64,000 nt of DNA, from the IMG/VR virus record IMGVR_UViG_3300028805_000116; one strand, 5' to 3'. The translations under genes were made by a program, and so were the position numbers. Source of the stretch: a virus. The notes beneath the pieces were generated by a model. That model made no database searches and had not been told where the DNA came from. It saw nothing but the letters and a program-made list of their open reading frames with translations. Below, one piece after another: positions 5,441 to 64,000 of the stretch. Positions within the stretch are counted from its first letter, which is position 1. Every line of letters starts with the position of its first letter.

Positions 5441-6138
5441 TGCCTAAATATATACCATTAAAAAAATGAGAGAAATTCTGAAAGCTTATTGCTTTATGAG
5501 AATGCGAAAAGAGATTAATATGAAAACAATGAGCTTCTGCTCGATATGAGAAATGTAAATGTACTTGTAAAAAGTGAAAAGAATTACGAGTCGCAAGAAC
5601 ATATTTAAATACTGGCCATACTGTAAGTTGTTGATGTGCGAGGTGAATTCCAAAATTAAAACATTGAGACACGTGAAGTAAATTATATAAAATCTATATG
5701 ACCGCTAAATCTAGGTGTAATAACCCAACTTGCTATAAATATAAGCGATATTGATGAAGGTGAATAAAATTTTTACGAGATAGTTATGAAGATTTTAAGA
5801 GAGATATGTGAGAATGATATTTAGAGCACATAAAAAAATATTGAAAAGAAAATACCCAAATAGATAGAATAGATAATAATTGAAATTACTGTAAAGATAA
5901 TTGTAGACGAGTGACTTGTAAAGAAAATTCAAGGAATAGAAGGAGTAACCATTTAGTTGATTTTCGTGGAGAAAGAATTTCGCTAATAGAGGCTTACGAA
6001 AAAGCTTCTCCTAAAATATCTTTCCCAGTCTTTTTATCTAGAATCTATAATAAGTGATTAGATAAAAACGTAGAATTAGCTTTATATTGAACAAATAAAG
6101 AAATAAGAGACTTTTTATCAGTTAATAGTGAAAAGTAA
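5440..6138 (+). CDS. Hypothetical protein, 232 aa. Position just upstream of terL suggests a possible small terminase subunit.
   Basis: Frame open from ATG 5440 to TAA 6136-6138 when TGA is sense. Translationally coupled to flanking genes. Confidence 0.4.
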
Positions 6139-20700: not shown

Positions 20701-21952
20701 TATAAGAAAAAATTGAAGCGAGGAGACGGTTGACCCATCTTGGAATAAATTAATTAATGCTGTTAGAAGTTGAGCTTACAATGGAACTTATACAACAAAC
20801 TTGATTTATAACTATGCTAAGACTTGGTTAGACAACCATTCGTCTGACCCTAACTATCAGCTTTATCTTAAACTCTTATGACAATGACAAGCTCATAAAT
20901 TAATTGAGTCTACACAAGACGATATTATAAAAGCTTGGAATGCTGGTAAGAAATGAGTTGATAATAAATGGACGGAGACTGAGTTCAAAAACGCCTGATT
21001 AAGGAGAGATATGTTATTATCTATGTGAAACACTCCTTTACCTTGAGATACTGAAACATTCTTTGATAAACTACAAGTTCTAGATGAGGATAATGCCACA
21101 GTTGCAGCATTACAAATCATTCAGAACCAAGCAAAAGAATGAGATAGAAAAATTATTGATAAGTTCTTTAATGTAAAAGAGAATGATGATTGAACAAAGT
21201 CTGTTACATTAAGAAGACAATATGAAAGTACATTAACTCAGATTTGAGCTGTTGCTAAAGCTATTGATGAATGAAATCTTGAGAGGGCAATATCTGAATC
21301 TTCTATTCTTACAAATATGTATAAGAACCAAGACCCATCAGGAGCTGTAACTGCTACATTGATTGATAGTGTTGTTAATAGAATATACGATACAGATAGT
21401 TTTTCTCCTGAGCAAAAGCAAGAAGCTATTATAGCATTATTCCATCATAATAAAGAATTCATACAAAAGAATCCAGAAAAGCTAAGAGAATTATTATGAG
21501 ATGAATATGATACTTATGCTAATTATATGAATCAGATGCTTTATCAATGGGATTGAGCATTATTGTCTACATTAGAAAGTATGCAGACTAGCTGAAAAGG
21601 TTCATCTTGAACTGCTAAGAAAACTAAAGCTACTTCTAGTGAATTGAAGAAATTAGCCGCCTCTCTAGGTAATGAATGATGAGCTAGAGGAACTTGAACT
21701 GTATGAAGCACAAAATCTTGGGTACCTGTTATTATTAAGTGAGCAGACTTAGTAAAGGAGTTATGAGTAAAATGATATACTCCTAATAAGGTATCATTGT
21801 CTATAAATGCTTATAAGCCTAAGATAGATTTAAGTATAGCTAAAGATATTAACAGAAAAGTTAAATGACCTAAGACACAACAGATATCAAACAAAAAACA
21901 ATTAAGTAAACTTGAAGATAAGGTTACAAAAGCTACTGAAGCAGAAAGTTAG
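11744..21952 (+). CDS. Giant protein, ~3402 aa, polyvalent-protein-like. HExxH zincin-like motif PHELFHAIFDMH at about 15296-15330. H-Y-E-class ADP-ribosyltransferase-like motif VYHGT...GPGMYFSTS near 13850-13950.
   Basis: Single frame from ATG 11744 to TAG 21950-21952. Same frame mod 3 as track ORF 21317-21499 which lies inside it. No TAA/TAG over 10.2 kb, >150 in-frame TGA. Confidence 0.6.
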
Positions 21953-22095: not shown

Positions 22096-22419
22096 ATGTC
22101 AATAGATGTAAATCAGATGGAAGACGATGTTCTAACAGAACACGTTGCTCCAGAGAATGAAAAGGCTAGGGAAATGCTGGACAGATTATGCCAAGAAGAA
22201 ATGTGAATGTCTGCTCAAGAGCTTTACCTTAGATGAATTTTACAAGAGATTAAATATCTACAAGATAATGCCAAAGATGGTAGCGATAGAGAAAAGTTAT
22301 TAAAGTACCTCAAGGAGGTAGATAATATATGTTGATTCTCTAAAGATAAAAGGGATGTAAAGATAGAAACTAAGTTACGTAGTGCATCCGACATTTTTAA
22401 TTCAACTAATCTAAATTAA
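22096..22419 (+). CDS. Hypothetical protein, 107 aa
   Basis: ATG 22096, TAA 22417-22419 overlapping the next start (taATG). Confidence 0.5.
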
Positions 22420-24461
22420 TGGAAAACATAGATAGCGAAGTAAAAAAGCAAGAGCAGGAGGCTAAAAAGAAAATCTACCAAGACAACTCCACTGATGCTG
22501 AACGCACCATCTACGGAAAACTCAAAAACATTTTAATCCATTTCAGAGATAATATCTTTCCAGAATGGTTTGATGTTATTAAAATGGATAAACTATATTC
22601 TAAAGAATATGAAGCTTGACTTAAAAAACATAATATGCAATATAAGTCAGCTAAAATATATCCACTTATCACTTCTATCCACGATACATTTATGGCTTCA
22701 TTATACGATAATGACTTGAGACCAAAGATATATCCTATGGAAGAGGTAGAACCATCTACAGTTGATGATGCCCAATTGTTCTTTCAATGGGGAACTGAAA
22801 TATCTGAAACAGAACAAACAAACGAAATTATTAGAAATGAGGCTTCATTAATTTGAGCTTCTTACTGAATGCCAGGTTATACAACAAGCATTATGAAAAA
22901 CGACGATTGAGATAACGTCGTAACATTCATACCTTGCCTATTCCCTGTATCAGCTTTTGAAATGTTTTATAGTGTCTGAGCCACAGATTTCTATAAAGCC
23001 CCAGAGAAGTTTAGAAGAAGATTTATCCCTTTTGATTGACTTAAAGATGCTTTCTACCCTATATGGGATTGAAAGGATTGAATGGGTAAACAAGTAGAAA
23101 AAAAGAAAACAGCTATCCTAGACGCACCTATGCCACTCAGTAAAGCAGATTTTACAAAGATATATGATATTGATGCGTATTCCGCAACGTATTTGGGAAA
23201 CTTGGGTGATGGAACTCCTACTGGTATGATTTATGATACTACATTTAATATTTTGGATAGTTCTAGCTACTGTGAAGTAGTTGACCTATACATAGGTGAT
23301 AAGCTTATGGTTATGGTAAATGGTTACTTTGTTTATTCAGGAGAGAGCCCTTTTAAATATTGAGAAGACTTTGCTATCTCTTGAAAAGATTGACCATTTA
23401 TAGAGTTAACATTTGAAAAAGGAGTTTGATGTATTCCAAGTGGAATTTGAAAGAAAGTTATGTGACATCAGAAGCAGTGTAATGCTTTATTTAACTCTAT
23501 AGCAGATGCTGTTTATAGACATTTAAATCCTGTATTAGCAGCAGTTCAATGAGCTATTACTGACCCTACCACAGGTAACGCTCCTACAAGTATTGGCTAT
23601 GATGAATGAAAGGTTTATTCAATTAATCCATCATACGCTTGAATGAATAATGCTATTACAAAGATAGACTTTACTGATTACAATATCCTTCAATTAGCTA
23701 TGAATCAGTTTGAGAATATCAAAGCTGATGCCTATACTATTTGTTGAGTTAACTCATATGTTCTAGGTTGAGAATGAAAAATTGAACGTTCAAGATACTG
23801 AGCAGAGCAAAGGGTTAATGCCTCTAAAGCTAGACTTAGCCCAATGATTAAATCTATAGGTAGATTCTATGCTAAATTATTCTATCATTGGCTATGACTT
23901 GCTAAACAAAGTTGAGCTAGTGTAGCTTATGTACAGAACGAAGATGAAGAGTATGTAATTAATTTATCTGAATTAGATAAGAAATTTAAAATTGTATGTT
24001 CAGCAGATATCGGAGTTGAAGAAACTAAAGCTTCTAAAGTTCAATGATTATTGACTATGATGCAGAACACTTCAGCATTTGCTACTAACCCTATTACAGG
24101 ATTACCTGATATTGACAATAGGGCATTCCTTGAAAGTGTTGCAGATTATGCAGGACTTAAAGGATTTAAAGCTATGTCAACCGATGAACAGAAACAATAT
24201 ATTGATGATAGTTATGTAATTAAAGATTACATTCAACAAAAAGAAATAGAAGCGCAACAACAAGCACAACAAGCACAACCTCAACCAGAAGAACAGGCTA
24301 TGCCAGCTACCAATGAGCAACCTTCAGAAGAGGAGCTTGCTATGATGATGCAACAAGCACAGTGAGCTAGTCCAGACCAATCAACATTACCTTATGTAAA
24401 TTCACAATATCCTACGCAACAAATAGACGATAGCCAACTTGACTTCGTGTTGCCACAATAA
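22419..24461 (+). CDS. Putative portal protein, ~680 aa. Assignment rests on position, size and an acidic Q-rich C-terminus only.
   Basis: Track ORFs 22419, 22635, 23082 and 24051 are all in one frame and joined by in-frame TGA. TAA at 24459-24461. Sits immediately upstream of the scaffold-like and capsid-like genes. Confidence 0.4.
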
Positions 24462-32334: not shown

Positions 32335-34080
32335 ATGCCAAGAGCAAGATTAGTATTCGATGGGGACTGAGTGTATACAGAGAAGGAAGCACGCATCCAT
32401 AAACTAACCCAGGAAACAGAAAATAAAATAGATAATATCCCTGGGGTAGTTGACGATGTGAACTCTACTTCTACGACAGACGCTTTGTCTGCGAATATGG
32501 GTAAGAGATTACAGGACCAGATTAACCAATTAACTTGATTAAATAAATTTTTATCTACTTGGGATTGTACGACTGGGCTTCCTGTTACAGACCCATCTGC
32601 AACTCCATTTACATATGCAAGTGGTAACTATTATTTAGTTGCTACTGTCGCTTGAGAATGAGGAACTAATTATAAACCTCATTGAAGTACATTTACTCCT
32701 TGAGTAGCTTCTACAGCAGTAGAAACTAATGAAGTAAATGTAAATGATATGTATATCTTTGATTGAAGTCAATGGATATTACAAGTAAATAAAGTAAAAG
32801 AAATAATTGTTGATGATGGACTTTCTCCTGATTCAACTAACGCTGTAGAAAATAGAGCTATCTATAATGCTCTAACTACTAAGCAAGATAAGATATTAGA
32901 TTTGGCTGATATTAGAGCAGGTGCCGCTTTAGGTATGACATCTATTCAGCCTTGAGATAATATAACAGAATTGACAAATAACGTAGGTTATCAAACTGCT
33001 GGAGATGTCGCTTCTGCCATAAATGACGCTATTGAATGAAGTAAATATGTTTGACCTACGGCACCCGACCCAGCTACAGAGTGAATGCTTTGGTATGATA
33101 CAACAAACGATGTACTAAAAAGTTACGACTGAACTAACTGGAATGAGGTTGGTAGTGATGCTGCTGATATTAACACAAAAACATTCTACCTATCAAATAC
33201 AGGAGATACAACTAATGCAAAAGCTGCATTGGATTGGTACTTGGCAGGGAAAAATCCTATTATTATATATAATAATACTGCATATATAGTAACTCCAAAT
33301 GCATATTCACAAACTGCTCTATGCTTTTGTGCAGCAAGTGTATATGCAGGTCGTGATAACTCTAAAACTACGAATTGAGTATTAACACTTGCAATAATCT
33401 ATAGTTGAGATACAGTTACTTCAATTCAAGCTGGTACAGCTGGTATAAGAGTACTTGAAACTGACAGAGATTATTCAACTCCATATACTCCTGAATATGA
33501 TTGAAGCCCAACTACAAAAAAATATGTAGACGATAAAGTTAAGAATGCTATAACTTCTTGAACTACAGCCCCTTCTAATCCAGTAGTTTGACAACTTTGG
33601 TATGATACAACTAATCATATCTTAAAAATATATAATTGAACAAGTTGGGTGCCTGTAGATACAGACACAACTTATACAGCAGGTACTAATGTACAGATAT
33701 CTAATCAAAATGTGATTTCTTCTACAGATACAACTTATACAGCTTGAACTTGATTATCTTTAAGTTGAACTGAATTTAATGTAAATACTAATGATATCGC
33801 AACGGTATCTTATGTTGATTGAAAGATATATATTTGATGAAGTGCTCCTGGAGTATGGTCAGAATGAATGCTTTGGTTTGATACATCAGTTAGCTCATTA
33901 AAGGTTTATTTATGATTTATGCCTTGACGAAAAGTAGTAGCTACAAAAGATGATGTAAATAATATAATAAGTGATGCTGCATTCTCTGCTTCTTGGGATT
34001 GAGACACAACACACGCACCTAGTAAGAATGCAATATATGATGTACTAGGAGACGTAGAAACTTTACTTGCTAACCTATAA
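32335..34080 (+). CDS. Tail fibre protein, ~581 aa, with three Phage_fiber_2-like repeats (GMLWYDTTNDVLKSYDGTNW, QLWYDTTNHILKIYNGTSW, GMLWFDTSVSSLKVY).
   Basis: ATG 32335 to TAA 34078-34080. Repeated WYDT...Y.G..W motif. Confidence 0.55.
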
Positions 34081-46431: not shown

Positions 46432-47358
46432 ATGGAAAACTTAACAGAAGAACAAATAAAAGCTTTTGAATGAGCTCTTACATTACCAGAAGATATGGCT
46501 GAAGCCACAGACTTCGAAGCTACAGAAGCAATTAAAGTTGATTATGACGTTAAGCTCCCAGAGTTCTTTTCTCTATGAAAATGGATTTACAAGACTTCTA
46601 ATCAATGAACTCTTTGAGCTTGTACTTCATTATGAACTACGCATTGAGTACAAATCTTACAGGTAAAAAAGAATTGAGTAGAGCCAACAGATAGGAATAT
46701 AATTACTCCACAATGGAAGGACCTATGGAGTAAGATGGGTCACTCAACTACTAAATATGATGGTTGAGACTATGTAGAGAAAGCCGTATCAACTGCGTTA
46801 AAGGAATGAATTCTTATTGAGGAGAATTGACAATTAGCTAAATTCGATGCTTATGCTACTTGAGAATGGGATAGAAGCGATAAGGCTATCGACCTAATGA
46901 AGAGATATCTTTATCAAGGTTGCCCTATTGTGTGGTGTGTAAGGTGAGATAAAACAACTTGGAGCGAGATGACTAAATGAGAAATCAAAACTGTTCCTAC
47001 AACTCCTACGGGATGACATTGTATAGCACTTGTCGGTTGGGATAATTGAGGATTCTGGTTTGTTAATAGCTGGAGTGCTAACGATGGTAAGAAACTTAAA
47101 TCTAGGTTCTACATTTCTTTTAAGACTATGAAAGATTTTGGATATAGATTTAACTATAGATATTGGGTTCTCTATATGAAAGAAGACGAAGCTAAAAGTG
47201 CAGAATATCTAAAGAGAAAGAATAGGGCTTTAGTAGTATTGCAAGCCCTTAAAAAATTATATCCTGAAGAGAACTCAGATGTTAAGATAGGGATTGAAAC
47301 TTTAAGCAGAGCTCTACGTAAAAGTTATCCAGAGCTTAATACAGATTTACCGTTGTAA
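46432..47358 (+). CDS. Papain-like (C1-type) cysteine peptidase, 308 aa. Catalytic-type motifs NQGTLGAC, GGHCIALVGW, NSWS. Candidate endolysin/peptidase.
   Basis: ATG 46432. Same frame as track ORF 47128-47358. TAA 47356-47358. Q/C/H/N-S-W order matches the papain fold. Confidence 0.5.
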
Positions 47359-48820: not shown

Positions 48821-50239
48821 ATGAGCGATTGTAAATGTAAACATCCTTGTAATCCTTGCAATGATAATTGTCCAGATGATGAAGAAATTACTGAGGTAGA
48901 GCTATTAGATGCCGATGAATGCTCTGGTCCTTGCGGTGGATGTTGCTCTAGTTGATGTAAGGATAATTGCTGAATAAATATTCAATCTACAAATGAATGT
49001 CTTACTGTAGATACATCAGAATGTTGAGTGGTTAAACTTACAGTAGAATGTCCTAAACCTACATATGTAAAGGCTTGAGATAACATTACTGTAGAAGAAG
49101 AAACTCCTCCAAGCGACTGTTATTCAAATTGATGAGATTGTTGAATAAAGTGATGATGGAAGATAAGCTCTACAGATGAAAATGTTAAAGCTTGTGACAA
49201 TGATAGCACACCCTGAACATTAATAGATAAACTAGAAGAAGGACATTGAATAAATATTGACCCTATAGGGTGTGATTGAAGCAATAGTAAATTAAGAATT
49301 TCATTTGATGATAGCGTTATACCTCCTTGTCCAACTCCGCCTAGGATTATAATAAATGACCAGTCTGAGTTAATTGATGCTAGAGTTAGTTGAACAGACT
49401 GACATACTATAACTATTACAGATAAAGATAAGTGAGTATTCTATGCTAAGCTAGTATTAGCTGATAATCATATATGGACTGAAGCCACTTGAAAAGAATG
49501 AGTTTGGGAACAGTATCTATGAGAAAAGGCTGCAGTTAATTGGAAACCTGTTAGACAATCTTGATGAGCTTTAGATGTGAGTGCTTCTCTACGTAAGTGA
49601 TTAGCATTCTTTAACTGAACTGACGCTGCTCCAGGATTATGAATAATAGAAATTACAAAGAAATGATTATACCAGGTATGATTTTCTTGAAGTGCTGAAT
49701 TCTCTTATTGAGTACACGCATTTAGAGTACAGCTATATAAAATTCCAAAAGCAGATAGAAGTAAGACTAATACCATAATTGAGAGTAGATACTCTTGACC
49801 ACTAGGTTATGAACCTTGGCAGCCTGTTATAGGCAATGCAGGTAATATTAAATTTGTTTCTAATGTTACTTGATGATGATGAGAAAGTAGACCTGACGTA
49901 GAAAAATGAGAATATCATATGGATTATCCATTAATATGAGAAAAAACCGAAGTAGAATGACAGCATTGAATCTGATATTCTGCTTCGTTATGAGCCGTGA
50001 TGGATAGAGTAACTGTAACAGGTAATACTATAGTAGAATTGGACGAATGAGATAGGTTGCGTATTTGATTAAAAATGTCTACATCAATAATGCACTCTTG
50101 AGATATGATGGCTAAAATTCCTGCAAGTTTCTTAACCTGACATTTTGCTTTGCTATGAGCTGACGCAGGACAAAGTGATAATGGATGAGAAGCTTGATTC
50201 TCTTATTACGCTAACCTTATTCATCCTTTACTTTCTTAA
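48821..50239 (+). CDS. Cys-rich N-terminal domain + jelly-roll-like C-terminal protein, ~472 aa. Tail fibre/receptor-binding or lysis accessory candidate.
   Basis: ATG 48821 to TAA 50237-50239. Many in-frame TGA. Confidence 0.4.
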
Positions 50240-50243
50240 TAAC

Positions 50244-50274
50244 AAAAATCCCCTTTTCCGAGGGGATTTTTTTG
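50244..50274. terminator. Bidirectional rho-independent terminator (aaaatcccc-ttttccga-ggggatttttttg) at the junction of the convergent gene blocks
   Basis: Perfect GC-rich stem flanked by A-run and T-run. Confidence 0.65.
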
Positions 50275-50523
50275 TAAGCAAAATTCAATAGTTTTTGCTA
50301 GAGATATAACAAATGACTACAACAAACCAAACAATTTTGGATGATTGCAACCTATATATAATAAATTCCTAACGAATTGCAAGAGAAAAATTACATATAA
50401 CTTAAGAATAGACAAACTCATAAGAAAACTGTAATTGCTATACATAGTATAGAAAAGCTTTTCTCTAATTCTTTTACCTTCTTTTCTAGTTTAGAGGTTC
50501 TAGCTATTTGGCTTTCCAGAATT

Positions 50524-51102
50524 CTATCAAAGGAATTCTGCCTCTCATCCTGTAAACCCATACGTCATTCAATAATTTCAAACCTGTCTTGAGTTGCTGT
50601 CATTATTATCTTCATAAAGATTTAAATCTAGTATTGAGGTAATATTATTATCGTGATAAACATATACAGGCGACTTACAATATTCATCACTATCTACCGC
50701 CTCAGAGAACCAATAGAAGAAATCTCTGTCTGGGTATCTTTCTCTCAAAGAATGATATCCTTGTTCTGCACTTCAGAAGACTATCTCTGTATTAGGATTA
50801 ACCCTAAAGATAGAGTATTCTTCTGTAGCCCATAGGGTATTTGTATTGGTTTCTAATATTAGCAGACTACATTCTACAGATTCTTTTATATCTTTCAAGT
50901 CTTTTGTTGCGTTATATAATATATCCTGTAAGAATTCCTGTAAGTCACAAGTATCATATATTTCTCCAGATGGGAGATTATGTTCTATCTGGTTAATAAA
51001 GTAATCTATATCTTTCGTACTTCAGCAAGAGGCAATAATTAAATGGACATTACCTCCATTAATTTCTCTTATCTTAGGACGGTAATAACTTACCGCAGAC
51101 AT
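50524..51102 (-). CDS. Hypothetical protein, ~192 aa (MSAVSYYRPKIREINGGNVHLIIASCGS...)
   Basis: Minus-strand ATG at 51100-51102, TAG at 50524-50526, frame consistent. Confidence 0.4.
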
Positions 51103-51188
51103 TAATTTTTGTCATACGGTAAGTCAATCATCTGTAAAGATACCCCATTTACCTCTAATCTGTTTTCCTCCGATTAAAGTCATAATTA

Positions 51189-51701
51189 GTTTTCTTTAGT
51201 AGGTAAAGTCCATCAAACATATTTACCAATTGTATCATATTCATTATCTTCTAGGAAGAAGCATCATCCTTGTTCTTCGTTAATTCTTTTGTCTTTAAAC
51301 TCATTTAATTCTTTATTGGCTTCATCTGTAACCTTTTGGTATTCAGCAGATAAGTCAGCCATTTCTTTATCTAATCAATTAAGTTGAGCTTCATCTTCAT
51401 CTGTCCAATTCTCTCCTTTAGCTTTCTTTTCTGATAACTTATTTCTTAATTCTCCTAAAGGTTGCATCTCTTCAGAAATTCTTTTCCATTCTGGTTCACA
51501 TTTTTCTTTTACAATTTCCTCTGCTTTTTTCTGAATTTCTCCTCAGATTTTTTGATATAATTCGGAATCATCTAATGCTTTAGCTGCTTTCTTAAATAAT
51601 TCTTTATCTAGGTTAAGTATATCTGTCCAGGTTGCTCAACCTATAGTTGAGTTTAACCATTGTTGTAAAAGTCTTCATTCTTTTACGCTAACTGATTTCA
51701 T
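51189..51701 (-). CDS. Coiled-coil hypothetical protein, ~170 aa
   Basis: ATG 51699-51701 (minus), TAA 51186-51188. Confidence 0.4.
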
Positions 51702-51758
51702 TTATTTTATTTTTATTAAACTAAATAATAAGCATATTGCTTTAAATCTTCGCCTTTA

Positions 51759-52493
51759 TGGTCGTGGTTTATATCATAACGAGCAGTATAATCTCATTCA
51801 ATTATAACCTTAGTCATATAGGCATTTTTTGCATAGCCCGCGTTTTCTATTTTTAATTCCTGTACCACAAACCTATTATCATCAGGAATTATTCACAAGT
51901 CTGTGAATGTATCAAATATAGATTGGGCTTGATTATCTATATCTGATTTAACTCTATCTCAAGCTACAGATATTATTGTTATCTTACAGGGAAAACTTTT
52001 AAAGTTCCACTCTACTCAAGATAACACGTTTACTATTCTCTTATGCCGTTCTGTATAAGTTTCACTTGGTAAAGAGATATGTCAAAAGTTTCTACGGTTA
52101 TTCTTTTTACTAGGTATAAATCCATAGAGAATAATTTCTATAGCCTCATCAGAGTTCTCAATAACTTCAGCATCTATACTATCTCGCTTCCGTCATTCAA
52201 ACTTTTTCTTAGGCATTAATTCAATATTGTAAACGTAAAACATTCTCTGAATATTTCCTTAGCCAATTAATAATAGATTGTAAATCAGCTATATCTACAT
52301 CAAGAATGTATCAATGAGAAAACTCTCATTCTGGAGTTTTAACGCTAACGTGGATTACTCAGTCTCAATCAGTATATAAATCAAAATATTTCCCTAATTG
52401 TTTTACAGGTTCTGATAAAGCATAGAATGCACAATTAAATTCATTCAGAAACTTCTGTAGTGTTTCAACTATCGCTTTGTCCTGTTTCTCCAT
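51759..52493 (-). CDS. Hypothetical protein, ~244 aa
   Basis: ATG 52491-52493 (minus), TAA 51756-51758. Confidence 0.35.
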
Positions 52494-52502
52494 TATGATT
52501 TA

Positions 52503-53588
52503 TTTAGTAATAAATATAATATCTGACAAACTATCTCGCTGTATAATTAAATCTCCTTCATTATAAGATTTCATATAGTTATCTACCGCTTCTTTTATAT
52601 ATCATAAATTGCTTTTTACTTTATTATGATTCCCATCAGAAGAATAACATACTATAAATATCTTATTCCCATTATGAAGTCTTCTCTCTTGAGAACAATT
52701 ACTATATAACCAATCAATTAATTCAGTTTTATGCTCTGTAGCGTAGTCTATATCCTTTCCAAATCATTTAGGGAAGACCGACATTTTTAAATCGAATGGT
52801 ATAGAATTAATATAGAAGTCTATTTCTCTACTACGCTGGTTAGGTTCATCTTCTACTATATCATATTTTAAGAATTGTTCTTCTGCAAAGTTAGATATCT
52901 GTAGATTAAATCGTCTATTTAAAGCATATCTAAATACTTTATCATAATCTAGATTTTTACTTTCACAAGTTTCTTTTGTTTTTTCTTCTAACTCATTATA
53001 AGATTGTACCTTATAAATATAATCTGTACAGTAATCAAAGCGGTCGTTTTGCTTATTCCCCCGACTTTGTAGATTAACTAGAGCTTTATTTAATTCTTCT
53101 TGTAATTGTTCCATATTTTATTTTTGTTTGTAAAGGGCTTTTTATTCTCGAGAGGTTTTCTTCTTTCTTCCTCTCTTTTTCTTTCATTTTATAGGTTCGT
53201 TATCTTTGATTGTTTCAATTGTTTCAAAGATAGTTTCTTGTTTCTTTTCTTTATCTGTCACAAGTTCTGTAACGTTTATTTCCAGAGCTACAATCTTTCA
53301 TTGAATTATGGCATCATTAATAGCTGATGTTTCCTTATAAGTAAAGGCATAATCCTTAAATATATTTGTAGCATCTTCTGGGGTAATTATTATATAGTTA
53401 TTATTATAAGGTAGTTGTACCTCATTTCAAAGGAAAAATGAAAAGTCTTTTATCTCTCTAGAAATTGTTATTGGTATAACTTCTTTCTTCTCATTTACCT
53501 TATCTATTAAATAATTTATTGCATCTACTAATGCGTTATAGTCTCCTATACCAGGGGACCTTCTAATATAATCAACCTTATGTATCAT
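52503..53588 (-). CDS. Hypothetical protein, ~361 aa, with a C-terminal PD-(D/E)XK-like motif (EIDFYI...FDLK). Track ORF 52764-53114 is its interior.
   Basis: Same frame from ATG 53586-53588 through internal Met 53114 to TAA 52500-52502. Confidence 0.35.
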
Positions 53589-53596
53589 CCCCATTA

Positions 53597-54166
53597 TCAT
53601 CTAGGCAAACTAAAATCAACTGCTAGAGCGTCTGTTCATCTAACTCTAGGCTTAGGCTTTGGAGTGGGGGCTTGGGTCCCCAAGTACTCGGGCTCCGAAA
53701 TTTTGGCTGGCATTTCGGGTTTCGCTACTAAATTAACCTTTTTCTCAGCCATAGTCTTTTTATAGGTTTCTATCTCCTTATCCAAGGAGTCATTTTCATT
53801 TTTAATTCTTTCTAGAGTTTCTCTCTTAGCTTTATTCGATTCAAGGTATTCCTTTATTAAGGTCTTACTTTCTTTAGCAATAACCTTAAAAGGCTCGTCT
53901 AATGACGAGATTGTCTGTGTATATAAATCCATAACTACTGTTGCTAATTGGAACTTGTCCAATCCTACTTTGTGAGTTTCTAGATATTCCTCACATACTT
54001 CAATTAGCTTTGCATTTATATCGTCAAGCATAGCGTCAGCATCTGCTTTATTATGCTTAACAATCACTTCCAATCATACCTTCTCTAAAGAGAACTCTAG
54101 TATTCATTGGTACACAGTTATAAATTGGCTCAACACTTTGCGTGTTGCTTTAGCTGTTGTCTGCAT
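53597..54166 (-). CDS. Hypothetical protein, ~189 aa. Pro/Lys-rich C-terminus.
   Basis: ATG 54164-54166 (minus) upstream of the track ORF. TAA 53594-53596. Confidence 0.4.
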
Positions 54167-54710
54167 CGTCTAAATCATTTTCCGTTATAAATCTTCTTAT
54201 TTTTAAAGCTATCGTTTCCACAATGCTTTTTACATTATAATATGAAGTTTTCATTATCCTAGCAATCTCATACTTTCATCTACCCTGCCCAAGGTATTGA
54301 AGTATTTGACTTTCTAGTGGGGTAATAATGTTATTTGCTACTAGAACATAGTCTAGTATATCAATATCCATATCATAACTTCGGTGTTCACTATCTCTAA
54401 TATCATCAATAGTATAACTCTCAAGTCAATACTGATTAATCTTATTGTAGAGATAACCACCTCATCTATTAAATAGATACCATAACTTAGAGATTTTCTT
54501 CTCTTCAGGTAAGTCCTCTCTAAGTATGATATTATCAGCTAAGAGAAATGCCTCTGAAAGAATATCTTCTTTTGTGTAAGTGTTATTCTTTATTCTTAAT
54601 AATGGGTTCTTTCTCATCAAAAGAGACATATTGTCGTAGAGAAATATTCTCCCATCATCTATATTTTTAGAATATTCACTTAGCACACGTTCGTAAATAT
54701 TCTTTGGCAT
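54153..54710 (-). CDS. ECF-like sigma factor / LuxR-type HTH regulator, ~185 aa. Region-2-like EDILSEAFLLADNIIL...KLWYLFNR. Region-4-like HTH TPLESQILQYLGQGRGKYEIARIMKTSYYNVKSIVETIALKI.
   Basis: Track ORF 54462-54710 extended through TGA to TAA 54150-54152. Confidence 0.5.
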
Positions 54711-55182
54711 TTTGTTTTTATTCTGGTAAAGCTAACTCATCCTCTAAACAACGAGCACAAGTCACTAAGGTTTTTATTCATAGGAATTTGCTTACACATT
54801 CATACATATATTGGTAAGCTGTTTCTGCTAAATGGATATAATCTAAGTCATCCATTTTTGTATTTAATAATTCTTGACTAAATTGATATGAAGCTATAGC
54901 GTGCTTAACCAAGCATCGCATATGGTCATCACATTCAATAGCCATTTCTTTTAGTTTTCTCATAGCTAACCTTCTCTCTTCCAAGAGGCTTTCCATTTTC
55001 GTCTCGTGCCATATACTTTGCTCTTCCAAATCAGCAGCTTCATCTTCTGAGAAGATTTTTCTGTTGTTTAAGTCTACTTGTAGAGAATTGTATAGTTCAT
55101 TATGATGAGAATAGCTAGCAATAAGATTAGCTATAAGTTCTATCAGCTCTGTAGCTGCTCAACGTTGACTATCTTTATTCAT
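54682..55182 (-). CDS. Hypothetical Cys/His-rich protein, ~166 aa, overlapping the sigma-factor gene start. Speculative anti-sigma/zinc-binding.
   Basis: ATG 55180-55182 to TAA 54679-54681. Confidence 0.35.
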
Positions 55183-55186
55183 TTTA

Positions 55187-55933
55187 CATTCTATCTAAAC
55201 TGTTTTCAGTTGTCTCTATTTCTCCCTTATGCACTCAGAGAAGATACTCATAAAGCTTTTGCTTTACGAACTCCTCAGCTTCTTCTCTAGTAACAAAATG
55301 GGTAATATTCTGATGCTGTATCGTCTTCTGCTTTGTAAAGATAAGATAACTAAAAGCTAACGTATCCACGTCTGGATGAGCAAGGAATTGAAACCAAGGA
55401 TAAAATCTACCTTGAAAACATTCAAAATCCCATTTTTCTTTCTCATTCCATTTTTTCTTAGCCGTCTTGCAATCAAACAAAGCGACACCATCCATTCCCC
55501 AATCTATTTCACCAGTTAAAATAACCTTATACCCAGAGAAATCTACTTCTACTGCGCTCCTTAAATTTCTAATATCATACATACCAAGAGCTTCGTATTG
55601 TTTTGATAAAGGAATTAATTGGTCAAGTCCATCATAAAGCCGCTGGAATTGATTATCAAGGACTCAACTAGGAGAGTAGTACTTCATCCTTTCAGGATTC
55701 ATCATCCTTCTACAGATTTCGATTTCCTTACGAGCAAAGTCTTCTCATTGATTAATATTGGCGAAGATTATATTTTCTATTAAGTTTCAAACCCAGTAGG
55801 TATTAGCCTTTTTCTTAGGTGGTAATTCTGTGACAAATGAAGGCTTAGGAGTAAGAGCCTTCTCGATTTCCGTAACGGATACAATAATAGTTTTATAATC
55901 TTCTTTGAGTGGTGCGAATTCGTGGTATAGCAT
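55187..55933 (-). CDS. YqaJ/lambda-exonuclease-like PD-(D/E)XK nuclease, ~248 aa (...TGEIDWGMDGVALFDCKTAKK...)
   Basis: ATG 55931-55933 to TAA 55184-55186. Contains track ORF 55235-55582. Confidence 0.4.
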
Positions 55934-56798
55934 CTTCGGTATAGAATATTAACTAAATTAGAAAGGAAGCTCATCTACAGGTGGAACTTCTTTTGTAGCA
56001 GGTTCTTCTCAAGCTGATTGCTTAGAAGAGGCTTCGTGATATTCTCTTAATTCCTGCATATGTTTATTTCTCCATTCCCTATCTTCTTCAGACATATCAT
56101 CACCTATCTTAAATGTAGGAACTGAATAATCTGTACTTCCTGTAGATAATTCTTTTTCATCTCAGAAAGATATTTTCTTACTAAGGAAAGCAAATGCTTT
56201 ATCGTCTTTGAAAGTTTCTCACCATTCTCAAGATGCAGAACTTTTAAGACAGATAGTAAAGATTTCTTCAGGATTTTTTACATCAAAACAATGTAAGTTT
56301 CTAAATAGTTTTAACCCAACTCAAGTTACTTCTGGTTTAATATCTTTCCATAAACCTTTATACAATACTTCATTTCAAGATAATACTGTAATAGGTTCAG
56401 AGAAATCATAAATTTCTGGCCCCCAAACTCAACCTTTAGTTTGGAGATAACCTTTTACATTCCAGCTCTCAGAAATAACTACAAACTCTTTAGGCATATC
56501 TTTAAGAGCAAAAGTTTTTTCAACTCAAGCATCTCTGTCCCATACCTTAAAGCATCCATCTTCAATTTTTTCTTTATTAGCTTTTCATTTAGCATCTTTT
56601 ACTAAACCAAACTTAGCACTTTTCCAATCATACCAACCTGTTGTTGGATGTTTCATTCAGCTAGTAGCTGAACCTTTTTTCTCGATGTCGTCAAAAAACA
56701 TTTTTTATAATAATATAATATAAAGATACTCTTAAAGAGGATAACCTCTTAAAGACAAAACCTTTATAAGGATTTAAAATCCTTTGTCAAGAGAATTT

Positions 56799-56990
56799 TT
56801 ATTTAGTTATGTAATATAAGTTTCTTAGAGTTAAGAACCCTGATTTCTCATCAGGAGAAAAACAGATAGCATCTATTTCACAACCCACTTCTTCATTAAG
56901 TAATAAGATTGTAGCCTTTAATGGGGCTGGCAAATCTTGTTCTAGAATAAAAGTAATTAGACTTTTTGGTAGTAATATAGTCCCATCCAT
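56799..56990 (-). CDS. Small hypothetical protein, 63 aa
   Basis: Track ORF with a genuine TAA. Confidence 0.3.
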   Translation of the reverse strand: MDGTILLPKSLITFILEQDLPAPLKATILLLNEEVGCEIDAICFSPDEKSGFLTLRNLYYITK

Positions 56991-59361
56991 AACGTCTATC
57001 TTTTCTTTGGTGATGATTTTAATAGTTCAGTGATTATATACTACAGTATAACCACCTACACTTTTATATGGATTCATTTCTTTTATTTTCTTAATGTAAA
57101 AGTTTTTGTTTTGCTATAGATATAAAGTCTGCATATCTTACCCTATCATAAATTCTCTCTCCTATTAGTCTGAATCTAATCGTGTAGGGATAACTTTTCC
57201 CCATATGGCAAAGGAGCCATCGGCCCTTCAGACCTAAAAGGAATTCAATTTCACTAGAGAAATCTGCATTGACTTCATCTGTTCGTTCTAATCATTCAGC
57301 CTTAGCTTGCTGTTTAAGTTCAGCAATAGCTTCAGATAAAGTTAAGTTCTTACCTTTAGTTTTCATCTACATAACTTTTTTTATAAATTCTCTTGACTTA
57401 GAGTTATAAATGATTAATATAGACTCCGCTGTCAATACAAAGCTAATTGACATTTTCTATTTTTCTACTCAATTAGCGTGTCCGTTGTATCGGCAGATTC
57501 TAAATCATTTTTTCTTGTGAATCTTTAATGAGATTCAAACACTTCTAAACTTTGGGGTAAAGGATACAGAAGTGATAATGTGGTGAGCGTTTGTTTCAAC
57601 TAACAACCATTCACCATTTCAATCAGCAAATAGATAACTCCAGGATTTACTCTCACCTGGGGTTACTATCATTTGCTCTACAAGTTCGTTACCTATTCTA
57701 TCACGAACCCATTTTAAAGGATAATAACTATTCATATTTTAACATATAGGAATAAAACAATCTTTGGACTTTAAATAAAAGCCCCAAGGCAGAGTAAACC
57801 TATTAGTATTATGTTCAACCCATAGATATCATTCTATAAGTCAGACTACTTCTACATAATAGCTTACTCCTCCTTGAGGCATTTTTATTATATCCCCTTT
57901 TTTTAAGAGAATATGTGGGATTACTCTCATTTTTTGTTTTTGTTTTTGCTGGCTAAATAATTACAACACATTTAAAATAAAGTTATAGTTTTAATTTGCA
58001 AGTCTTTTTTAAAGAGGTATAGTCATCCACTTGAACTAATCTAGCTCAAGTTTTTTTATAGCTGAGTTATAGTTCTTCACCCAGTGAGAACATTCACTAG
58101 CACAATATTTTCCCCTGAGCCAATCGTTTCAAGTGACTCTAGTCTCCCGACCATTCCTAACGTACATCGCAACCCATTCTTTTATGGATTCTTCAACGCT
58201 TGAGAATTTCTTTTTCTTTCAGTTATACATCCATCAAAATCAATTATTGCTTGGATACATAGCCTGTTTAAACATACCCGACTCAGCATTGCTGACTCAA
58301 ATTACATTTTTAATACATTGCTTATAGTTATCAGTCTGCGTAGCACACTCGTGAACTATAGCATAACTAATAGATTCATTCCCAACTAATGAATTTACCT
58401 TTTCGACAAGCTTCTGTTCTGTCATTTCTCGGGTGTAGATGATAGTTTCTTCTACAGTTGTAGCTCAAGTTAAGACATCACCTGTAAGTGAAGTAGCTTG
58501 TTCAATAATTAAATCCTCACCGTGTCATAGGTTAAATCAAAATATAAATACTAAGATTGTAACCATAACTATAATAAGGATTTTTAGTCGCTTAGTTGTC
58601 ATACTTTGGTTTAAGATTTAAATCTTCCCAACCTATATTTCTATAGAGAAGGTGCAGACTATACCTCTTGCCCTCTTTAGAATAGTTCCAGACCGTAGTC
58701 CGAGCTGTGCGAACACCTATTCTTGGCTGAGGCTTCCACCTCTCCAAACATTATTTCTTTTGCACATATCTTGATAACGGCATAACGCTTCAAATAAACA
58801 TTTTCTACAGCTTTCAATTTCAATTCATTTCTCGCAAACTCTTTTCTTCTCTTCTACTTTTTCTTTGCTGTAGAAGTGTTCCTTTATAATTTCTTCTCAT
58901 CTCGACATATAATCTATTGTAAAGAAATAAAATCCCCATATATAGATTATATATTTAAGATAAATTTTAATAACCTATTCCTTATCAAAAGGTACTTCTA
59001 ATTGGTTTTCATCTTTCTTTCTATCTTCACCTTTATAATGAGCAATTAAAGCTCTAGCTAATTCCATAGCCCTTTCTTCATTTCAAGGTATCCCAGCTAT
59101 CTCATTTAATTCTTGAGCGGCTTTTTCTAATTCGTACTTATTCATTAATCTGTATATTGCATAATGTTAAAAAGTCTATTAGGTAACTCTTCATCGTGTT
59201 TATGTTGCCTAAGTTTTTTAATTATCTTCTTATATTGATATGGGCGGAGACTTCCATAATAGGAAGACTTCTTATTATTTTTCCATTTTCAATATTTATC
59301 TTTTCGCACGTGACGACAATATGAGCAATGACAGCAACCAAAGCCCATACTGATAAAATTA

Positions 59362-59742
59362 TTAGAATACATTGAACGCATTTAATGTTAAAACAATATT
59401 CCATATTAATACAATAATAGATACCAAAAACAAACGAATATCTTGTGTATCGGTATCATTTTCTAACCTTCTAATTCTATCTTGGTGGATTTGTAAGATT
59501 TCTGAGGTATTCTTAGCTACCTCAGAAGCTATATCCATAACATCCACAAGATGATTTACATTTTCATATAACTCATCTTGGTTTTCATCTAGCTCCATTA
59601 TATCCTTTGCTAGAAAGGTGATTTGTTCCTGAAGAAACTGCATTTCTCCATCGTGTAATTCTTCTACTGAATTACACTTTGTAACCTTTGGGTTTTTCAT
59701 AATTATATATATTATTAATTTAAAACACAATAAACACATCAA
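59362..59742 (-). CDS. Membrane-anchored coiled-coil protein, ~110-126 aa
   Basis: Track ORF with a genuine TAA. N-terminal start is ambiguous. Confidence 0.35.
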   Translation of the reverse strand: MMCLLCFKLIIYIIMKNPKVTKCNSVEELHDGEMQFLQEQITFLAKDIMELDENQDELYENVNHLVDVMDIASEVAKNTSEILQIHQDRIRRLENDTDTQDIRLFLVSIIVLIWNIVLTLNAFNVF

Positions 59743-60320
59743 CTACGTAACTCTCAATTCCTTTTCTTTTCTTCATATTCTTCATCAGATAAATATTCCA
59801 TTTGAGGTTCATATCTACTTGTCACTCGTACCTCTCCACGAGAAGGAGCGTTCCAAGTAAGTTCTGTTGGTGTAGCTCAAGACATAATATGAACCTGCCC
59901 ATTCTGAACATTATAAGTATTAATTATTGGGGGGATTGGGAATGTAAACTGCTCAGCCATCATACCATCTTCTCAAATTATATCCCCTGACTGATTATAC
60001 TTTAAATAATATTCTCTTAGCATATCATTTACCTCTATAGATATTATTTTATACATTCTCTTAGCTTCTTCAAAATCAGCAATTCACCTTACCCATTCCC
60101 ATAATTCATCTATAAATCTAGGTAGGCCAATAGAAGATAGTCAACATCTTACTATACATTTCATACTAGGTTTTTCATACCATACTTCTATAGTAAGTTT
60201 TCATCTCATATATTTTCTCTCTATTACGGGGTATTTCATTTTATTTTTATTAAGATATAAATCTTGTCTCAACAAACCACCACGCTAATAGGATAACTAT
60301 TTCTATCCCTATAGTTATTA

Positions 60321-60551
60321 TTAATCCTTTCCACGGTTGTTCCATCGTTTAATTATTTTCTCAAGTAAAATAGTTATCTTGTCCCCTATTAGACAGGGAA
60401 GACAGAGGTGAATAACCCAACTGTCTTCGTGTGTCCAATATTGTTTACAATGTCTGTTGCAATACATACAACTCTCTTCACTAATAGCTTCATAATCTTC
60501 CATTGTCTCTTCCAATAATTCACTAGCATTACTATCCAATGTAGCATCCAT
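60321..60551 (-). CDS. Cys-rich Zn-finger-like small protein, 76 aa
   Basis: Track ORF with a genuine TAA. Confidence 0.35.
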   Translation of the reverse strand: MDATLDSNASELLEETMEDYEAISEESCMYCNRHCKQYWTHEDSWVIHLCLPCLIGDKITILLEKIIKRWNNRGKD

Positions 60552-60876
60552 CCTTCAATATTTTTCTTTCAAGTCTACCGTCCCCCAATTTATTTCTGCT
60601 AGCTCCTTCATTGTGTTATATCGATAATCGTACCATTTAGCTTTCTTATCTACACTAGGAGTGAATGGTTTAAATCGTCTCATTATCCTTTTACTAACTC
60701 AATAAAATCATCTAACTCTTTATCAATCATTCATCTTATGATATTCTTCAATTCCTCATATTGAGTGATTTCTGGATTATCAAAAGATGGTTCTCATAGG
60801 TGGTCTAGATTAGCATAGGAATCAACCACATCCATTATTTCATTAGCTAATTTTTCTGCTATACTTATCATTTTTA

Positions 60877-61656
60877 TTGCATCATCATTATAAATGAACT
60901 ATCTTCTCAGGCCATAGTTACAGGTAATTTACCATCCCATCTTTCAATCCATTTTAATTTTACATATTCAGCACCTCATTGGTTTTGAATAGCTTTAGCT
61001 TGGATTTCAATAGCCTTAGCTTGCGCCTCAGCTGCGACAACCTTTTGGTCAGCTTCATACTTTACTTTCTCTAGCTTATTCTTTTCGGCAAGAGCATTCT
61101 GTTCAGCGGTAACCTTAGCCTCAATTGCATCGTTGAATGATTTACTAAAGTTAAAGTTTACAATATTGAATAACTGAATTTGGACTCCGTATGGTTCAAG
61201 CCTTTTGTTCAATGTTTCTTCAATGTTTTTAGATACATCACTTCTTTCAGTAATCAATTGCTCTGCTGAATATTTAGCGACTACTGCTTTAAATACTTCT
61301 TGAATAGCAGGAGTAATAATCTTTTCAGCTACTTTTTCTTCTTTACCTACATTCTTGTATAGGTTTACTACTTCGCTTTCCTTGTACTTGTAGTTCACTA
61401 CTATTGTGGCACCTACACTCTGCAAGTCTTTTGAACTAGCATCAGCTGTAGCATCTAATTTTTGCGTCTGTACATTATATTTTACAGACTTAGTAATGAA
61501 TGGAGTTTTAAAATGTAATCCATCCGTGTAAACAGTACTGTTAACTTTTCCTAGTGTAACAGTAAATCAGTTGTATCCAGGTTCAACTACAAACCAAGAG
61601 TTAAAACCACAGATTACTAACAAGAGTATGACAATACTCCAAACAAATTTTTTCAT
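60877..61656 (-). CDS. SPFH/band-7 (prohibitin/stomatin-like) membrane protein, ~259 aa. N-terminal TM helix MKKFVWSIVILLLVICGF. SPFH core includes ...ITPAIQEVFKAVVAKYSAEQLITERSDV...AEAQAKAIEIQAKA...
   Basis: Track ORF 60976-61425 extended upstream to ATG 61654-61656 and downstream through TGA to TAA 60874-60876. No TAA/TAG in frame. Confidence 0.5.
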
Positions 61657-62246
61657 AATGTATATTGGTAAAAATATAAAAACTAATATTTAGGATGAGG
61701 CAATTTCCTTATCCAGCTTTTAAGCCAATCGCTTATCCATTCACTAAATTCCATATCTGAAGCAAGGTCAATCACAACAAATAAAAAGAGTAATCAAACA
61801 ATTATAAGTCCTATCATAGGTCCAGTTCAACAGTCTTCACACATAGTAATATAATTAAGAAATAAAATTATTCTTTATCTAATTTTTTATGTAGCCATTC
61901 TTTAGCTCTATCCTGTATGATTTCTGATAATTCCCCACCAAAAAGTCACAAATCAACTATTATAAATATCACAGAGAGAAATCCTCCAATAAGGATTATT
62001 GCTACTACAGTAAGAAAAGTTCAAAGTATTAGTCACATAGTAATATAATTAAGAAATAAAATTAATTTTCTTTTGGCTTACGTTCATCTAACCAATGCTT
62101 AGTCCAAGCCTTTAGATAATCTGAAAGGGCTCAACCTAATAACATATCATCTACAACTCCTGCTAATAATAATGTTAGGAGTAGTATTATAGGTAGCATA
62201 AATATAACGAATATCATTTGTATATAATAATAATATAAAAGTCTGA

Positions 62247-62519
62247 TTACTCTCACTCTTTAATTTCTTTCCTCATTTGATTTTTAACTTCATCATACCA
62301 TTTAGAATAATTCCATTCTTTATATAGTGCCATTTGATTAGAAGTTGGCGATAGTAAATAAATCTCTGCTAATCTTAACATAAGTTTATCTTTCAGCTTT
62401 TTATTTTCTTCTTCTAGCATATCTATATACTTATTCATCTTGTCCAAAAACTTTTTATCTTTTTCATCTTCACAGATAAATGAATATCTTGTTTTAGTCC
62501 AATTACTTTCTACTTTCAT
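62247..62519 (-). CDS. Small hypothetical protein, 90 aa
   Basis: Track ORF 62253-62519 extended by two codons through TGA to TAA 62247-62249. Confidence 0.4.
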
Positions 62520-62549
62520 TTTTAAAAGTAAATAATATAAAAGTCTGAT

Positions 62550-62742
62550 TTAGTCTGCATTTAGAATTACAACATCTTTTAATGCACCTCAATTTTCCAT
62601 ATCATTTACTCGGTTCTCTTCTACACTTTCTAATGTGGTAGCCTCATACTCACTCTTAAAACTACCATTTTCTCGGTATATCCATACCTCTTTATCTTGT
62701 GGCATTTTCTGTAATTTTTCTATAAGTTCTTTTACTGTCATT
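62550..62742 (-). pseudogene. Small gene MTVKELIEKLQKMP|QDKEVWIYRENGSF... disrupted by a 1-nt frameshift near 62697-62703
   Basis: The N-terminal 16 codons are in one frame and end at TAA 62692-62694. The rest continues seamlessly in the -1 frame to TAA 62550-62552. Confidence 0.35.
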
Positions 62743-64000
62743 TCCTTTAGGTAAATAATATAAAAGTCTGATTTAGTCTAAAGCTGAAATTACGTTTATA
62801 AGTAAACATACAAAAGCAAACAACAACACTAATGGAACTCATACAATAGGGCATATAACACACAATGCTGTCATAGCAAAGGCTGCCACAAATATACAAA
62901 TAGTAATTAAAAGTCAGATTATTATTTTCATTTCCATAGGTAAATAATATAAAAGTCTGATTATAATGTAATAATATCTCCATCAACAAGGAACACATCA
63001 AATACATTATCTACTTTAATATGTTCGACTTTACTATCCCATCTCCTGATGTCTGGAATTGCCATATTCCAAATCTCTCCTAATTCATATTCAAACGAAA
63101 ATCATAATTCTGATTTCTTTTCTTTCCATCCCCACCATTTCTTGTAGTATGGTTTCCAATATTCTCAACCAGTGACTATATGGTTTTTGAATTTTTTTAA
63201 TCTTCGTTTCATACTTTAATATTACTAAGTAAAAAATCCTCTAACTTATCTTCATCACATAAGGCACTTTCTATCAAGTAGTATTGGTATTCATTTTCTA
63301 ATATACATCTATCTCAATTGGTTTTCCCATCTCGTTGCCAAATATGTTCTTCATATCAAGGTCTTTTTGGTCGCATTCCATTCTCACACACGAATTGCCA
63401 TAGTCAGCTTTCTTTCGCAACCAATGCTCTAATAGATTTTTCATAAAAAGTTAATCAGAATATAGTTCTTTTAGAAAAACTAATATATTTAGTTGTATAA
63501 TAAGCATTTCTTAAATGTGGTATTCATCGTGGTTTCCACCCTCTTTGGATAAGTCTATTCAATAGTTGTTCTAATTCGTCTACCATAGGTTATAAACTAA
63601 GTAAATAAATAACAGTTTCTCCTGCCGCTACACTAATAAACATCCCACCTAATACAAACCACCAAGTGAATAAATCATATTTGCATTGTATATGCCAACA
63701 TATAAAAAATACAATCATTGAGACAGATACTCAAGTTATAAATATTTCTCTTGTCATAGGTTATTAAATTAAGTAAATAAATCTGACTACTCTCTATAAT
63801 CATCATAAACCTCTAATGTCCATTGTCATTTTATATCTTTACCAATTATAATTTCATAATCTTTTTCCTCTACAAGTTTTAATAATTCTTCAAGAGTATT
63901 TATCTCTATATCTTTATATTTTCAAAAGTTATGTGTATAATGTAATTTGAATTTCATTCTGATTTTTATTTAAGATATGAAATAAGGTCTTCAATAGGTG

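Follow-up and report, generated by a model that had tools for sequence, protein, structure and literature searches.

A prohibitin-like SPFH gene in a phage that reads TGA as glycine, probably infecting Absconditabacteria, is a well-conserved copy of the host lineage's gene

SPFH proteins form rings or domes that abut membranes, with roles in membrane organisation and protein quality control (PMC12624060), and HflKC is a partner of the FtsH protease, which degrades lambda CII (PMC1838920). SPFH genes were listed in T4-like phages in 2006 and are also carried by Stenotrophomonas phages; orf75 of Burkholderia phage CSP3 encodes an SPFH protein discussed as a possible influence on lysogeny, ORF141 of Fusobacterium phage FNU1 belongs to the prohibitin family and is 77% identical to a Fusobacterium protein, and the authors describing phage GIB1 wrote that the reason for the presence of its SPFH gene 'remains unclear'. 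Code-25 phages of Absconditabacteria have already been described, without mention of SPFH (PMC10746230). We found no paper linking SPFH to Absconditabacteria phages, and none reporting a functional test of any phage SPFH protein. Phage SPFH genes being already known, what is notable in the present case is a TGA=Gly phage, by its codon usage one of Absconditabacteria, with a well-conserved copy of the host lineage's SPFH gene.

We analysed a 64,000-nt stretch of viral DNA (IMG/VR record IMGVR_UViG_3300028805_000116; hereafter the window), near one end of which lie the gene and the parts of its product listed here.

60874..61656, minus strand: SPFH/prohibitin-family coding sequence, 260 codons plus a TAA stop (Pfam, PHROG and PDB sequence matches)
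61585..61647, minus strand: N-terminal signal-anchor transmembrane (TM) helix, residues ~4-24 (single hydrophobic segment; helix 2-24 in a proxy model)
61066..61590, minus strand: SPFH (Band_7) domain, residues 23-197 (Pfam PF01145; Foldseek superposition)
60922..61146, minus strand: Ala/Gln/Glu-rich long helix, the coiled-coil wall region, residues ~171-245 (proxy model and conservation)

The gene starts with an ATG at 61656, its final sense codon ends at 60877 and its TAA stop occupies 60874-60876. Three of its codons are in-frame TGA, namely codon 30 (61567-61569), codon 227 (60976-60978) and codon 250 (60907-60909), and because of them the standard bacterial code breaks the frame, with the result that an ORF listing yields only a 149-aa fragment (60976-61425). 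An earlier sequence-only reading of this DNA had placed the gene at 60877-61656; these coordinates are exact, but the frame is open only with the three TGA codons taken as sense, and the alternative code that this implies was left unmentioned. Reading through them is justified by the window as a whole (1-64000), in which ATG-initiated ORFs of at least 80 aa total 20,564 aa with TGA as sense vs. 2,495 aa under code 11, an 8-fold rise. The gene contains neither CGA nor CGG codons, and its translation is therefore untouched by the reassignment of these codons that we discuss below. A long stop-free frame also runs antisense within the gene (60851-61390, plus strand) and recurs at every homologous locus; this is most likely a by-product of a strongly conserved sense strand combined with TGA not being a stop, and not a gene.

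We found that the translated protein matches Pfam Band_7 (PF01145; E=7e-33, 114.6 bits against a cut-off of 23.6) over residues 23-197 and profile positions 2-174 of 176, and that it also falls into PHROG family phrog_200 (E=1e-50). Searched against all PDB sequences, it retrieved PHB2 (3.5e-29, with an alignment spanning residues 20-238 of the phage protein) and PHB1 (9e-25 to ~1e-25) ahead of HflC (1.5e-9), HflK (1e-6) and stomatin (2e-3), and Foldseek ranked these in the same order. Judged by these sequence matches, the protein is a member of the prohibitin branch of SPFH, nearer to it than to HflK/C or stomatin. Two more specific assignments were rejected. It is not an HflC equivalog, scoring 58.3 bits against a cut-off of 134.4 for NCBIfam TIGR01932 and 35.4 against 427 for PRK11029. 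Nor is it a lipoprotein, as the PHROG 200 label would have it: there is no lipobox ([LVI][ASTVI][GAS]C) in the protein or in nine close homologues, and Cys16 is not conserved, being absent from both host copies and from three phage copies.

The sole hydrophobic segment of the protein (residues ~4-24, Kyte-Doolittle 19-residue mean 2.24) is flanked by MKK (+2) on its N-terminal side and by no net charge (0) on its C-terminal side, for which the positive-inside rule predicts an N-in/C-out orientation; the longer homologues carry a highly charged N-terminal extension ahead of the TM helix, which fits this orientation. For the fold we relied on a proxy, a 93%-identical protein (P0001) modelled with AF2 from a shallow alignment of 26 close sequences, and the result is a low-confidence model (mean pLDDT 57) with an N-terminal helix (residues 2-24), a core of mixed alpha/beta structure and a long unbroken helix (175-242). 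When this model was submitted to Foldseek, all 50 top PDB matches were SPFH proteins, with the human PHB1/2 complex first, and its core superposed on stomatin SPFH crystal structures at 2.1-2.7 A (TMt ~0.8), values to be read with the low confidence of the model in mind. The stretch AEAQAKAIEIQAKAIQNQ, which the sequence-only reading had quoted as an Ala/Gln/Glu-rich coiled coil, occupies residues 209-226, inside the predicted helix at ~175-242 of the proxy, and the long-helix region aligns with the coiled-coil region of PHB2. The SPFH/Band-7 identity, the prohibitin-like type, the N-terminal TM helix and the coiled coil, all proposed at the outset from the letters of the DNA, are thus borne out, and these features of the protein are far beyond chance.

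The three TGA codons also led us to the genetic code of the phage. In an alignment with standard-code homologues from Bacillota and Chloroflexi metagenome-assembled genomes (MAGs), the TGA codons of the window gene and of two related copies (L001, a host MAG contig, and L017, a phage-like element) fell on invariant Gly columns and never on a Trp column (0 cases), and an SPFH copy that is 89-90% identical (L019) has GGN at all three of the window's TGA sites. Orthologue alignments between the window and related phage contigs gave 130 TGA:TGA and 77 TGA:GGN pairs; among the Gly codons of the long structural genes TGA predominates (682 TGA vs. 320 GGN), and the stops among the genes counted were 12 TAA and 1 TAG. 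Code 4 (TGA=Trp) is ruled out by this placement of TGA on invariant Gly columns and by its alternation with GGN in close homologues. In orthologues of the part of the window from 50000 to 64000, compared with the phage contigs L018, L028 and L027, CGA (69 aligned sites) and CGG (21) paired with TGG (26 times), with each other or with Phe or Tyr codons, and never with AGA, AGG or CGT, which themselves paired with Arg and Lys codons. By this pairing, CGA and CGG behave as Trp codons in the window phage. Reassignment of CGA and CGG to Trp, on top of UGA to Gly, was predicted for Absconditabacteria by Shulgina and Eddy 2021 (PMC8629427), and because the two codons act as Trp here, codon usage points to Absconditabacteria (SR1) as the host rather than Gracilibacteria. 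In the literature searched we found no report of CGA/CGG=Trp in phages, and ARAGORN found no tRNA, suppressor or otherwise, in the window.

The same code leaves its traces in other copies of the gene and in public translations. The SPFH copy at L019:10001-10798 (also in L020 and L021; protein P0004) has no TGA at all and writes Gly as GGA, GGG or GGT, and two of its conserved Trp positions, codons 25 and 244, are written CGG and CGA; in L001, the host MAG copy likewise uses CGG where the window gene has Trp. Since CGG or CGA stands at these sites, public translations of the L019 and L001 copies show Arg there. Seven public SPFH proteins (P0018, P0021, P0023, P0086, P0101, P0105 and P0120) show Trp where Gly is conserved, as in the 'VEPWYEWFTVTLWK' of P0101; evidently the contigs behind them were translated by code 4 instead of code 25, and this looks like a systematic annotation artefact. 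The consequences are practical, in that this SPFH gene and hundreds of its relatives are mistranslated in public protein sets (Trp for Gly, Arg for Trp) or split by standard codes, and that standard 'code 25' translation of the window phage itself places Arg at Trp positions.

The genes that could be named elsewhere in the window are as follows.

2179-2958: DnaB-like helicase
2985-3887: DUF6291 protein
5341-6138: HNH endonuclease
22419-24461: portal, a weak match
32335-34080: fibre-like repeats
46432-47358: the sole lysin-like gene seen, by a weak Peptidase_C39_2 match that falls short of the Pfam cut-off
51716-52243: RusA-like resolvase

Large genes occupy the plus strand from ~4.5 to 50 kb, and small, mostly unknown genes the minus strand from 50.5 to 64 kb. 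The minus-strand module that holds the SPFH gene also holds RusA-like, DnaB-like and LuxR-type-HTH genes, with the portal and fibre genes on the opposite strand. The sequence-only reading had assigned the SPFH gene to an early region; by position the gene does lie in a non-structural module, and early expression of that module is plausible from gene position alone. Dense in-frame, Gly-like TGA codons occur here together with portal, HNH, RusA-like and DnaB-like genes, the combination looked for in phages of code-25 hosts. We also considered that the region might be host chromosome, or a mis-binned contig, carrying the bacterium's own SPFH gene, as might be argued from the 74-79% identity of the protein to chromosomal copies and from a megablast of 40000-64000 that returned no DNA-level match among 50,697 GenBank phage records. 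This we hold to be extremely improbable. The window has portal, HNH, fibre-like, RusA-like and DnaB-like genes, and its structural block and its small unknown ORFs lie on opposite strands; the SPFH region shows gene-by-gene synteny to two long phage-like contigs (L018, 83 kb, and L028, 72.6 kb), in which the SPFH protein is 87% identical; four IMG/VR viral contigs carry copies that are 76-83% identical; and the genuine host contexts are different, with ATP synthase or ribosomal proteins nearby.

Several other parts of the window attracted our attention. A motif of ~24 nt, AATCAGACTTTTATATTATTTACC (minus strand), occurs in four copies in the region upstream of the SPFH module (62209-62248, 62511-62550, 62734-62773 and 62923-62962), each just upstream of the start of an annotated or candidate minus-strand ORF; these are candidate phage promoters or regulatory sites, and a generic sigma-70 scan did no better than on shuffled sequence. 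At the other end of the window, positions 1-1500 have a GC content of only 5-14% (100-nt windows), which rises abruptly to ~30% at about 1500. This stretch contains a 294-codon stop-free frame (1-882, minus strand) that continues past the window edge; its translation abounds in Asn, Lys, Ile, Leu and Glu and matched nothing in Pfam. A 74-aa ORF follows at 883-1107. The stretch may represent a genuine gene of very strong AT bias, an insert of foreign DNA or a junction made in assembly. In the structural block, a single ORF of 3,402 codons (11744-21952, plus strand) includes an HELFH motif that could mark a zinc-metalloprotease-like site.

The immediate neighbours of the SPFH gene flank it closely on both sides.

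61683..62217, minus strand: three tandem paralogous small single-TM genes directly upstream of the SPFH gene (ORFs and translations)
61683-61844, minus strand: small TM gene, 53 aa
61868-62038, minus strand: small TM gene, 56 aa
62062-62217, minus strand: small TM gene, 51 aa
60321..60871, minus strand: two tightly packed genes directly 3' of the SPFH gene
60683-60871, minus strand: 62-aa ORF with its ATG 2 nt past the SPFH stop, not conserved in L018 or L028
60321-60683, minus strand: 120-aa Cys-rich protein, kept downstream of the SPFH gene in L018 and L028 at 72% identity

In each of the three upstream proteins an acidic junction connects a TM helix to an amphipathic tail rich in Trp and Lys; two of the three genes have a 36-nt upstream repeat in common, and 26 nt separate the end of the last from the SPFH start. 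By their adjacency, the small TM genes may be tied in function to the SPFH gene. The small TM proteins, the 62-aa ORF and the 120-aa protein all lack a Pfam or PHROG match, as do most of the neighbours scanned, and the few matches obtained came without an informative function. No Pfam family was found at E<=0.01 in ten neighbours, the three small TM proteins included, and so no NfeD-family partner of the kind known from SPFH-NfeD operons (stomatin/QmcA-YbbJ type). A phmmer search for a second SPFH paralogue or HflK partner, covering every stop-free stretch of 50 aa or more in the window, retrieved the query alone.

This arrangement raised the question of whether the gene might serve lysis timing or membrane stabilisation, with an SPFH ring and the three small TM proteins sequestering or organising membrane-active phage proteins, or reinforcing the membrane against early depolarisation or lysis. 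The small single-TM genes stand in tandem directly upstream not only in the window phage but at the equivalent position in L018 (all three) and in L028 (two of three), their products are holin-like in size and shape, and SPFH proteins act elsewhere with small membrane partners and with membrane-stress systems, e.g. B. subtilis YdjI/SamI with PspA (PMC8581546; bioRxiv 2026.02.06.704340). Even so, we consider this explanation unlikely: the small proteins match no holin or other family, the SPFH module does not adjoin the sole lysin-like gene at 46432-47358, and the idea is further weakened because more distant phages keep the SPFH gene while lacking the small TM genes.

How widely the gene is distributed became clear from the searches for relatives. 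Homologues were found by tblastn in 59 GenBank phage records, and in most of them the gene already bears the name prohibitin, band 7 or HflC-like; the hosts include Rhizobium, Bacillus, Alteromonas, Fusobacterium, Faecalibacterium, Acinetobacter, Yersinia and Escherichia. With a matching PHROG family, these records, papers since 2006 and a common occurrence in phages of the present host group, SPFH proteins can hardly be called rare in phages, as the sequence-only reading had supposed. A large protein search returned 3,952 matches, of which the best 120 clusters were all 74-92% identical to the window protein. We examined ten further genomic contexts, two of them cellular and the others phage-like. 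On the cellular side, the chromosomal SPFH genes of TGA-recoded bacteria encode proteins 74-79% identical to the phage protein: in L001 (MAG contig CAMVNG010000003.1, 92.7 kb) the gene follows a tRNA-His and lies near GltX-, UDG-, NusG-, L11- and L1-like genes (neighbours identified by eye from their translations), and in L030 and L031 it stands beside FKBP and an F-type ATP synthase operon. The phage-like contexts (L017, L019-21, L022/L026, L023, L027, L032, L033 and L036) are marked by integrase, NinG, RtcB, fibre-repeat, tail, SU10-type portal, dUTPase or DnaB genes, or by being IMG/VR viral contigs. At least ten other phage-like contigs carry SPFH copies that are 77-90% identical, and IMG/VR held, besides the four viral contigs with close copies, five with distant ones, in pattern-based scans too pattern-limited for an estimate of frequency. 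The gene is common among phages of this host group. At two loci a tRNA gene adjoins it, a tRNA-Trp(CCA) just downstream in an integrase-bearing element (L017:9067-9140) and the tRNA-His just upstream in the host contig L001 (7727-7803); these are possible integration or recombination hotspots.

The SPFH gene is by far the best-conserved gene common to the window and otherwise distant phages. In most of the more distant phages its product is 77-89% identical, vs. 32-64% for the few other genes in common (L022, L027 and L032 have more ORFs in common with the window). In a simple NJ tree, host and phage copies formed one tight clade, 73-98% identical, within which the two host copies paired together; the host side consists of these two sequences only, too few to polarise transfer from host to phage or the reverse. 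The nearest non-recoded bacteria are 48% identical at most. Recent horizontal transfer as the source of the high identity is ruled out by synonymous sites that are near or beyond saturation between groups, and for the same reason the identity reflects long-standing constraint. We estimated dN/dS at 0.02-0.2 among the phage copies and at 0.056 between the two host copies, and by this measure of sequence divergence the gene is kept under strong purifying selection in several phage lineages. The constraint is greatest in the helix at residues 171-245, where identity stands at 84% with both host copies and at 91-97% with the other phage copies; the variable parts are the TM region (38-79% identical) and the C-tail (27-93%).

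Exclusion proteins are usually lineage-specific and fast-evolving, and this bears on the proposal, raised from the start, that the protein mediates superinfection exclusion, with a membrane-anchored SPFH protein blocking the DNA entry or adsorption of competing phages. We regard this as highly unlikely. The protein is 74-79% identical to a copy in a housekeeping context in the host, under similarly strong purifying selection in phage and host, and the near absence of change across otherwise distant phages favours a conserved cellular partner over a phage-specific target; furthermore, a search for defence-system components matched no PADLOC-DB family at E<=0.01. On the other side, the protein is membrane-anchored and most of it is predicted to lie outside the cytoplasm, it is encoded in a non-structural module among small genes of host-takeover type, and a similar entry or adsorption idea has been put forward (PMC13239085). 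The other proposal made at the outset, an HflKC-like modulation of host membrane proteases, fits the family better.

We reasoned, by analogy with the cellular systems, that the phage SPFH protein may be an anchored, ring-forming protein that supplements or joins the host complex to favour phage production, a reading to which we give nearly, though not quite, an even chance. The single N-terminal helix would anchor the protein with its N-terminus in the cytoplasm, which would place the SPFH domain and long helix at the outer face of the cytoplasmic membrane, the arrangement known from HflK/C and prohibitins. Through the conserved helix, subunits would assemble into a multimeric ring or cage around a membrane patch and its client proteins; the example of HflK/C and prohibitin suggests FtsH, a membrane AAA protease, as the main client. 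Produced from the non-structural genes during infection, the phage protein would add to the host complex, take its place or assemble together with it. Membrane proteolysis and integrity would thereby be kept favourable to phage production, for instance through protection of membrane proteins of the phage, such as the three small TM proteins from the genes directly upstream. Because the wall-forming helix is nearly unchanged, the phage copy most plausibly builds or joins a ring of this kind. Against this mechanism stand the score far below the HflC equivalog cut-off and the finding of neither a second SPFH gene nor an NfeD neighbour in the window; HflK/C and PHB1/2 are both hetero-oligomers. 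A bolder version, which we think quite unlikely, is that the phage protein is a subunit mimic that co-assembles with the host SPFH protein in a mixed, PHB1/PHB2-like cage, re-programming FtsH access or membrane compartmentalisation, and that it is a signature takeover gene repeatedly exchanged among distant Absconditabacteria phages. If this were true, it would offer one of the first functional handles on phage manipulation of minimal, episymbiotic CPR bacteria.

The locus provides a comparative set in which a single host lineage is matched with at least four clearly different phage backbones, the gene is under strong purifying selection and the presumed ring-forming helix is the most constrained part; this pattern of constraint across backbones argues that the phage protein performs the molecular task of its cellular counterpart and that the phage benefits from it. 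It makes SPFH a membrane-located candidate for studying how phage and host interact in Absconditabacteria, bacteria that have tiny genomes and are barely, if at all, in culture. A second interest lies in the doubly altered code of the window phage (TGA=Gly, CGA/CGG=Trp).

Among solved structures, the best match in both sequence and fold is PHB1/PHB2, the ring of the mitochondrial inner membrane (PDB 8rrh, 9o9z and 9unl; Foldseek E=4e-14 at 28-29% identity, obtained with the P0001 model of pLDDT 57). The two are built alike, with a membrane anchor at the N-terminus, then an SPFH domain and then a long coiled-coil helix, and the bulk of PHB1/2 lies on the side topologically equivalent to the exterior of the bacterial membrane, as is predicted for the phage protein. 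The differences are that prohibitin assembles only as a hetero-oligomer of its two paralogues, compared with one SPFH gene in the phage window, and that prohibitin is eukaryotic whereas this protein is bacterial or phage in origin. The HflK/HflC-FtsH complex of E. coli (PDB 7vhp, 7wi3 and 9cz1) has an N-in TM anchor and a periplasmic SPFH cage, modulates a membrane AAA protease and is tied historically to the lysis-lysogeny decision of phage lambda. It resembles the phage protein in sequence and fold, but as a much weaker match than prohibitin, and the differences include an HflC score below the equivalog cut-off and the absence of an HflK-like partner from the window.

Two further comparisons are closer in setting. 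The phage proteins of phrog_200, among them FNU1 ORF141, CSP3 orf75 and those of Alteromonas phages AD45-P1 to P4 and Bacillus phages AR9 and PBS1, are likewise phage-borne, about 250-300 aa long and N-terminally anchored, and the close resemblance of FNU1 ORF141 to a protein of its host genus is the pattern seen here; they differ in being at most ~40% identical to this protein, in having standard-code hosts and in that none comes from a Patescibacteria/CPR phage. The chromosomal SPFH proteins of Absconditabacteria type (L001, L030/L031) stand among housekeeping genes and differ from the phage protein mainly at the ends (N-tail 42-62% and C-tail 50-57% identical), but over their full length of 263 aa they are 74-79% identical to it, with the same TM/SPFH/coiled-coil layout, and they have in common with the phage its codon peculiarities, TGA at Gly sites and, in L001, CGG at a Trp site.
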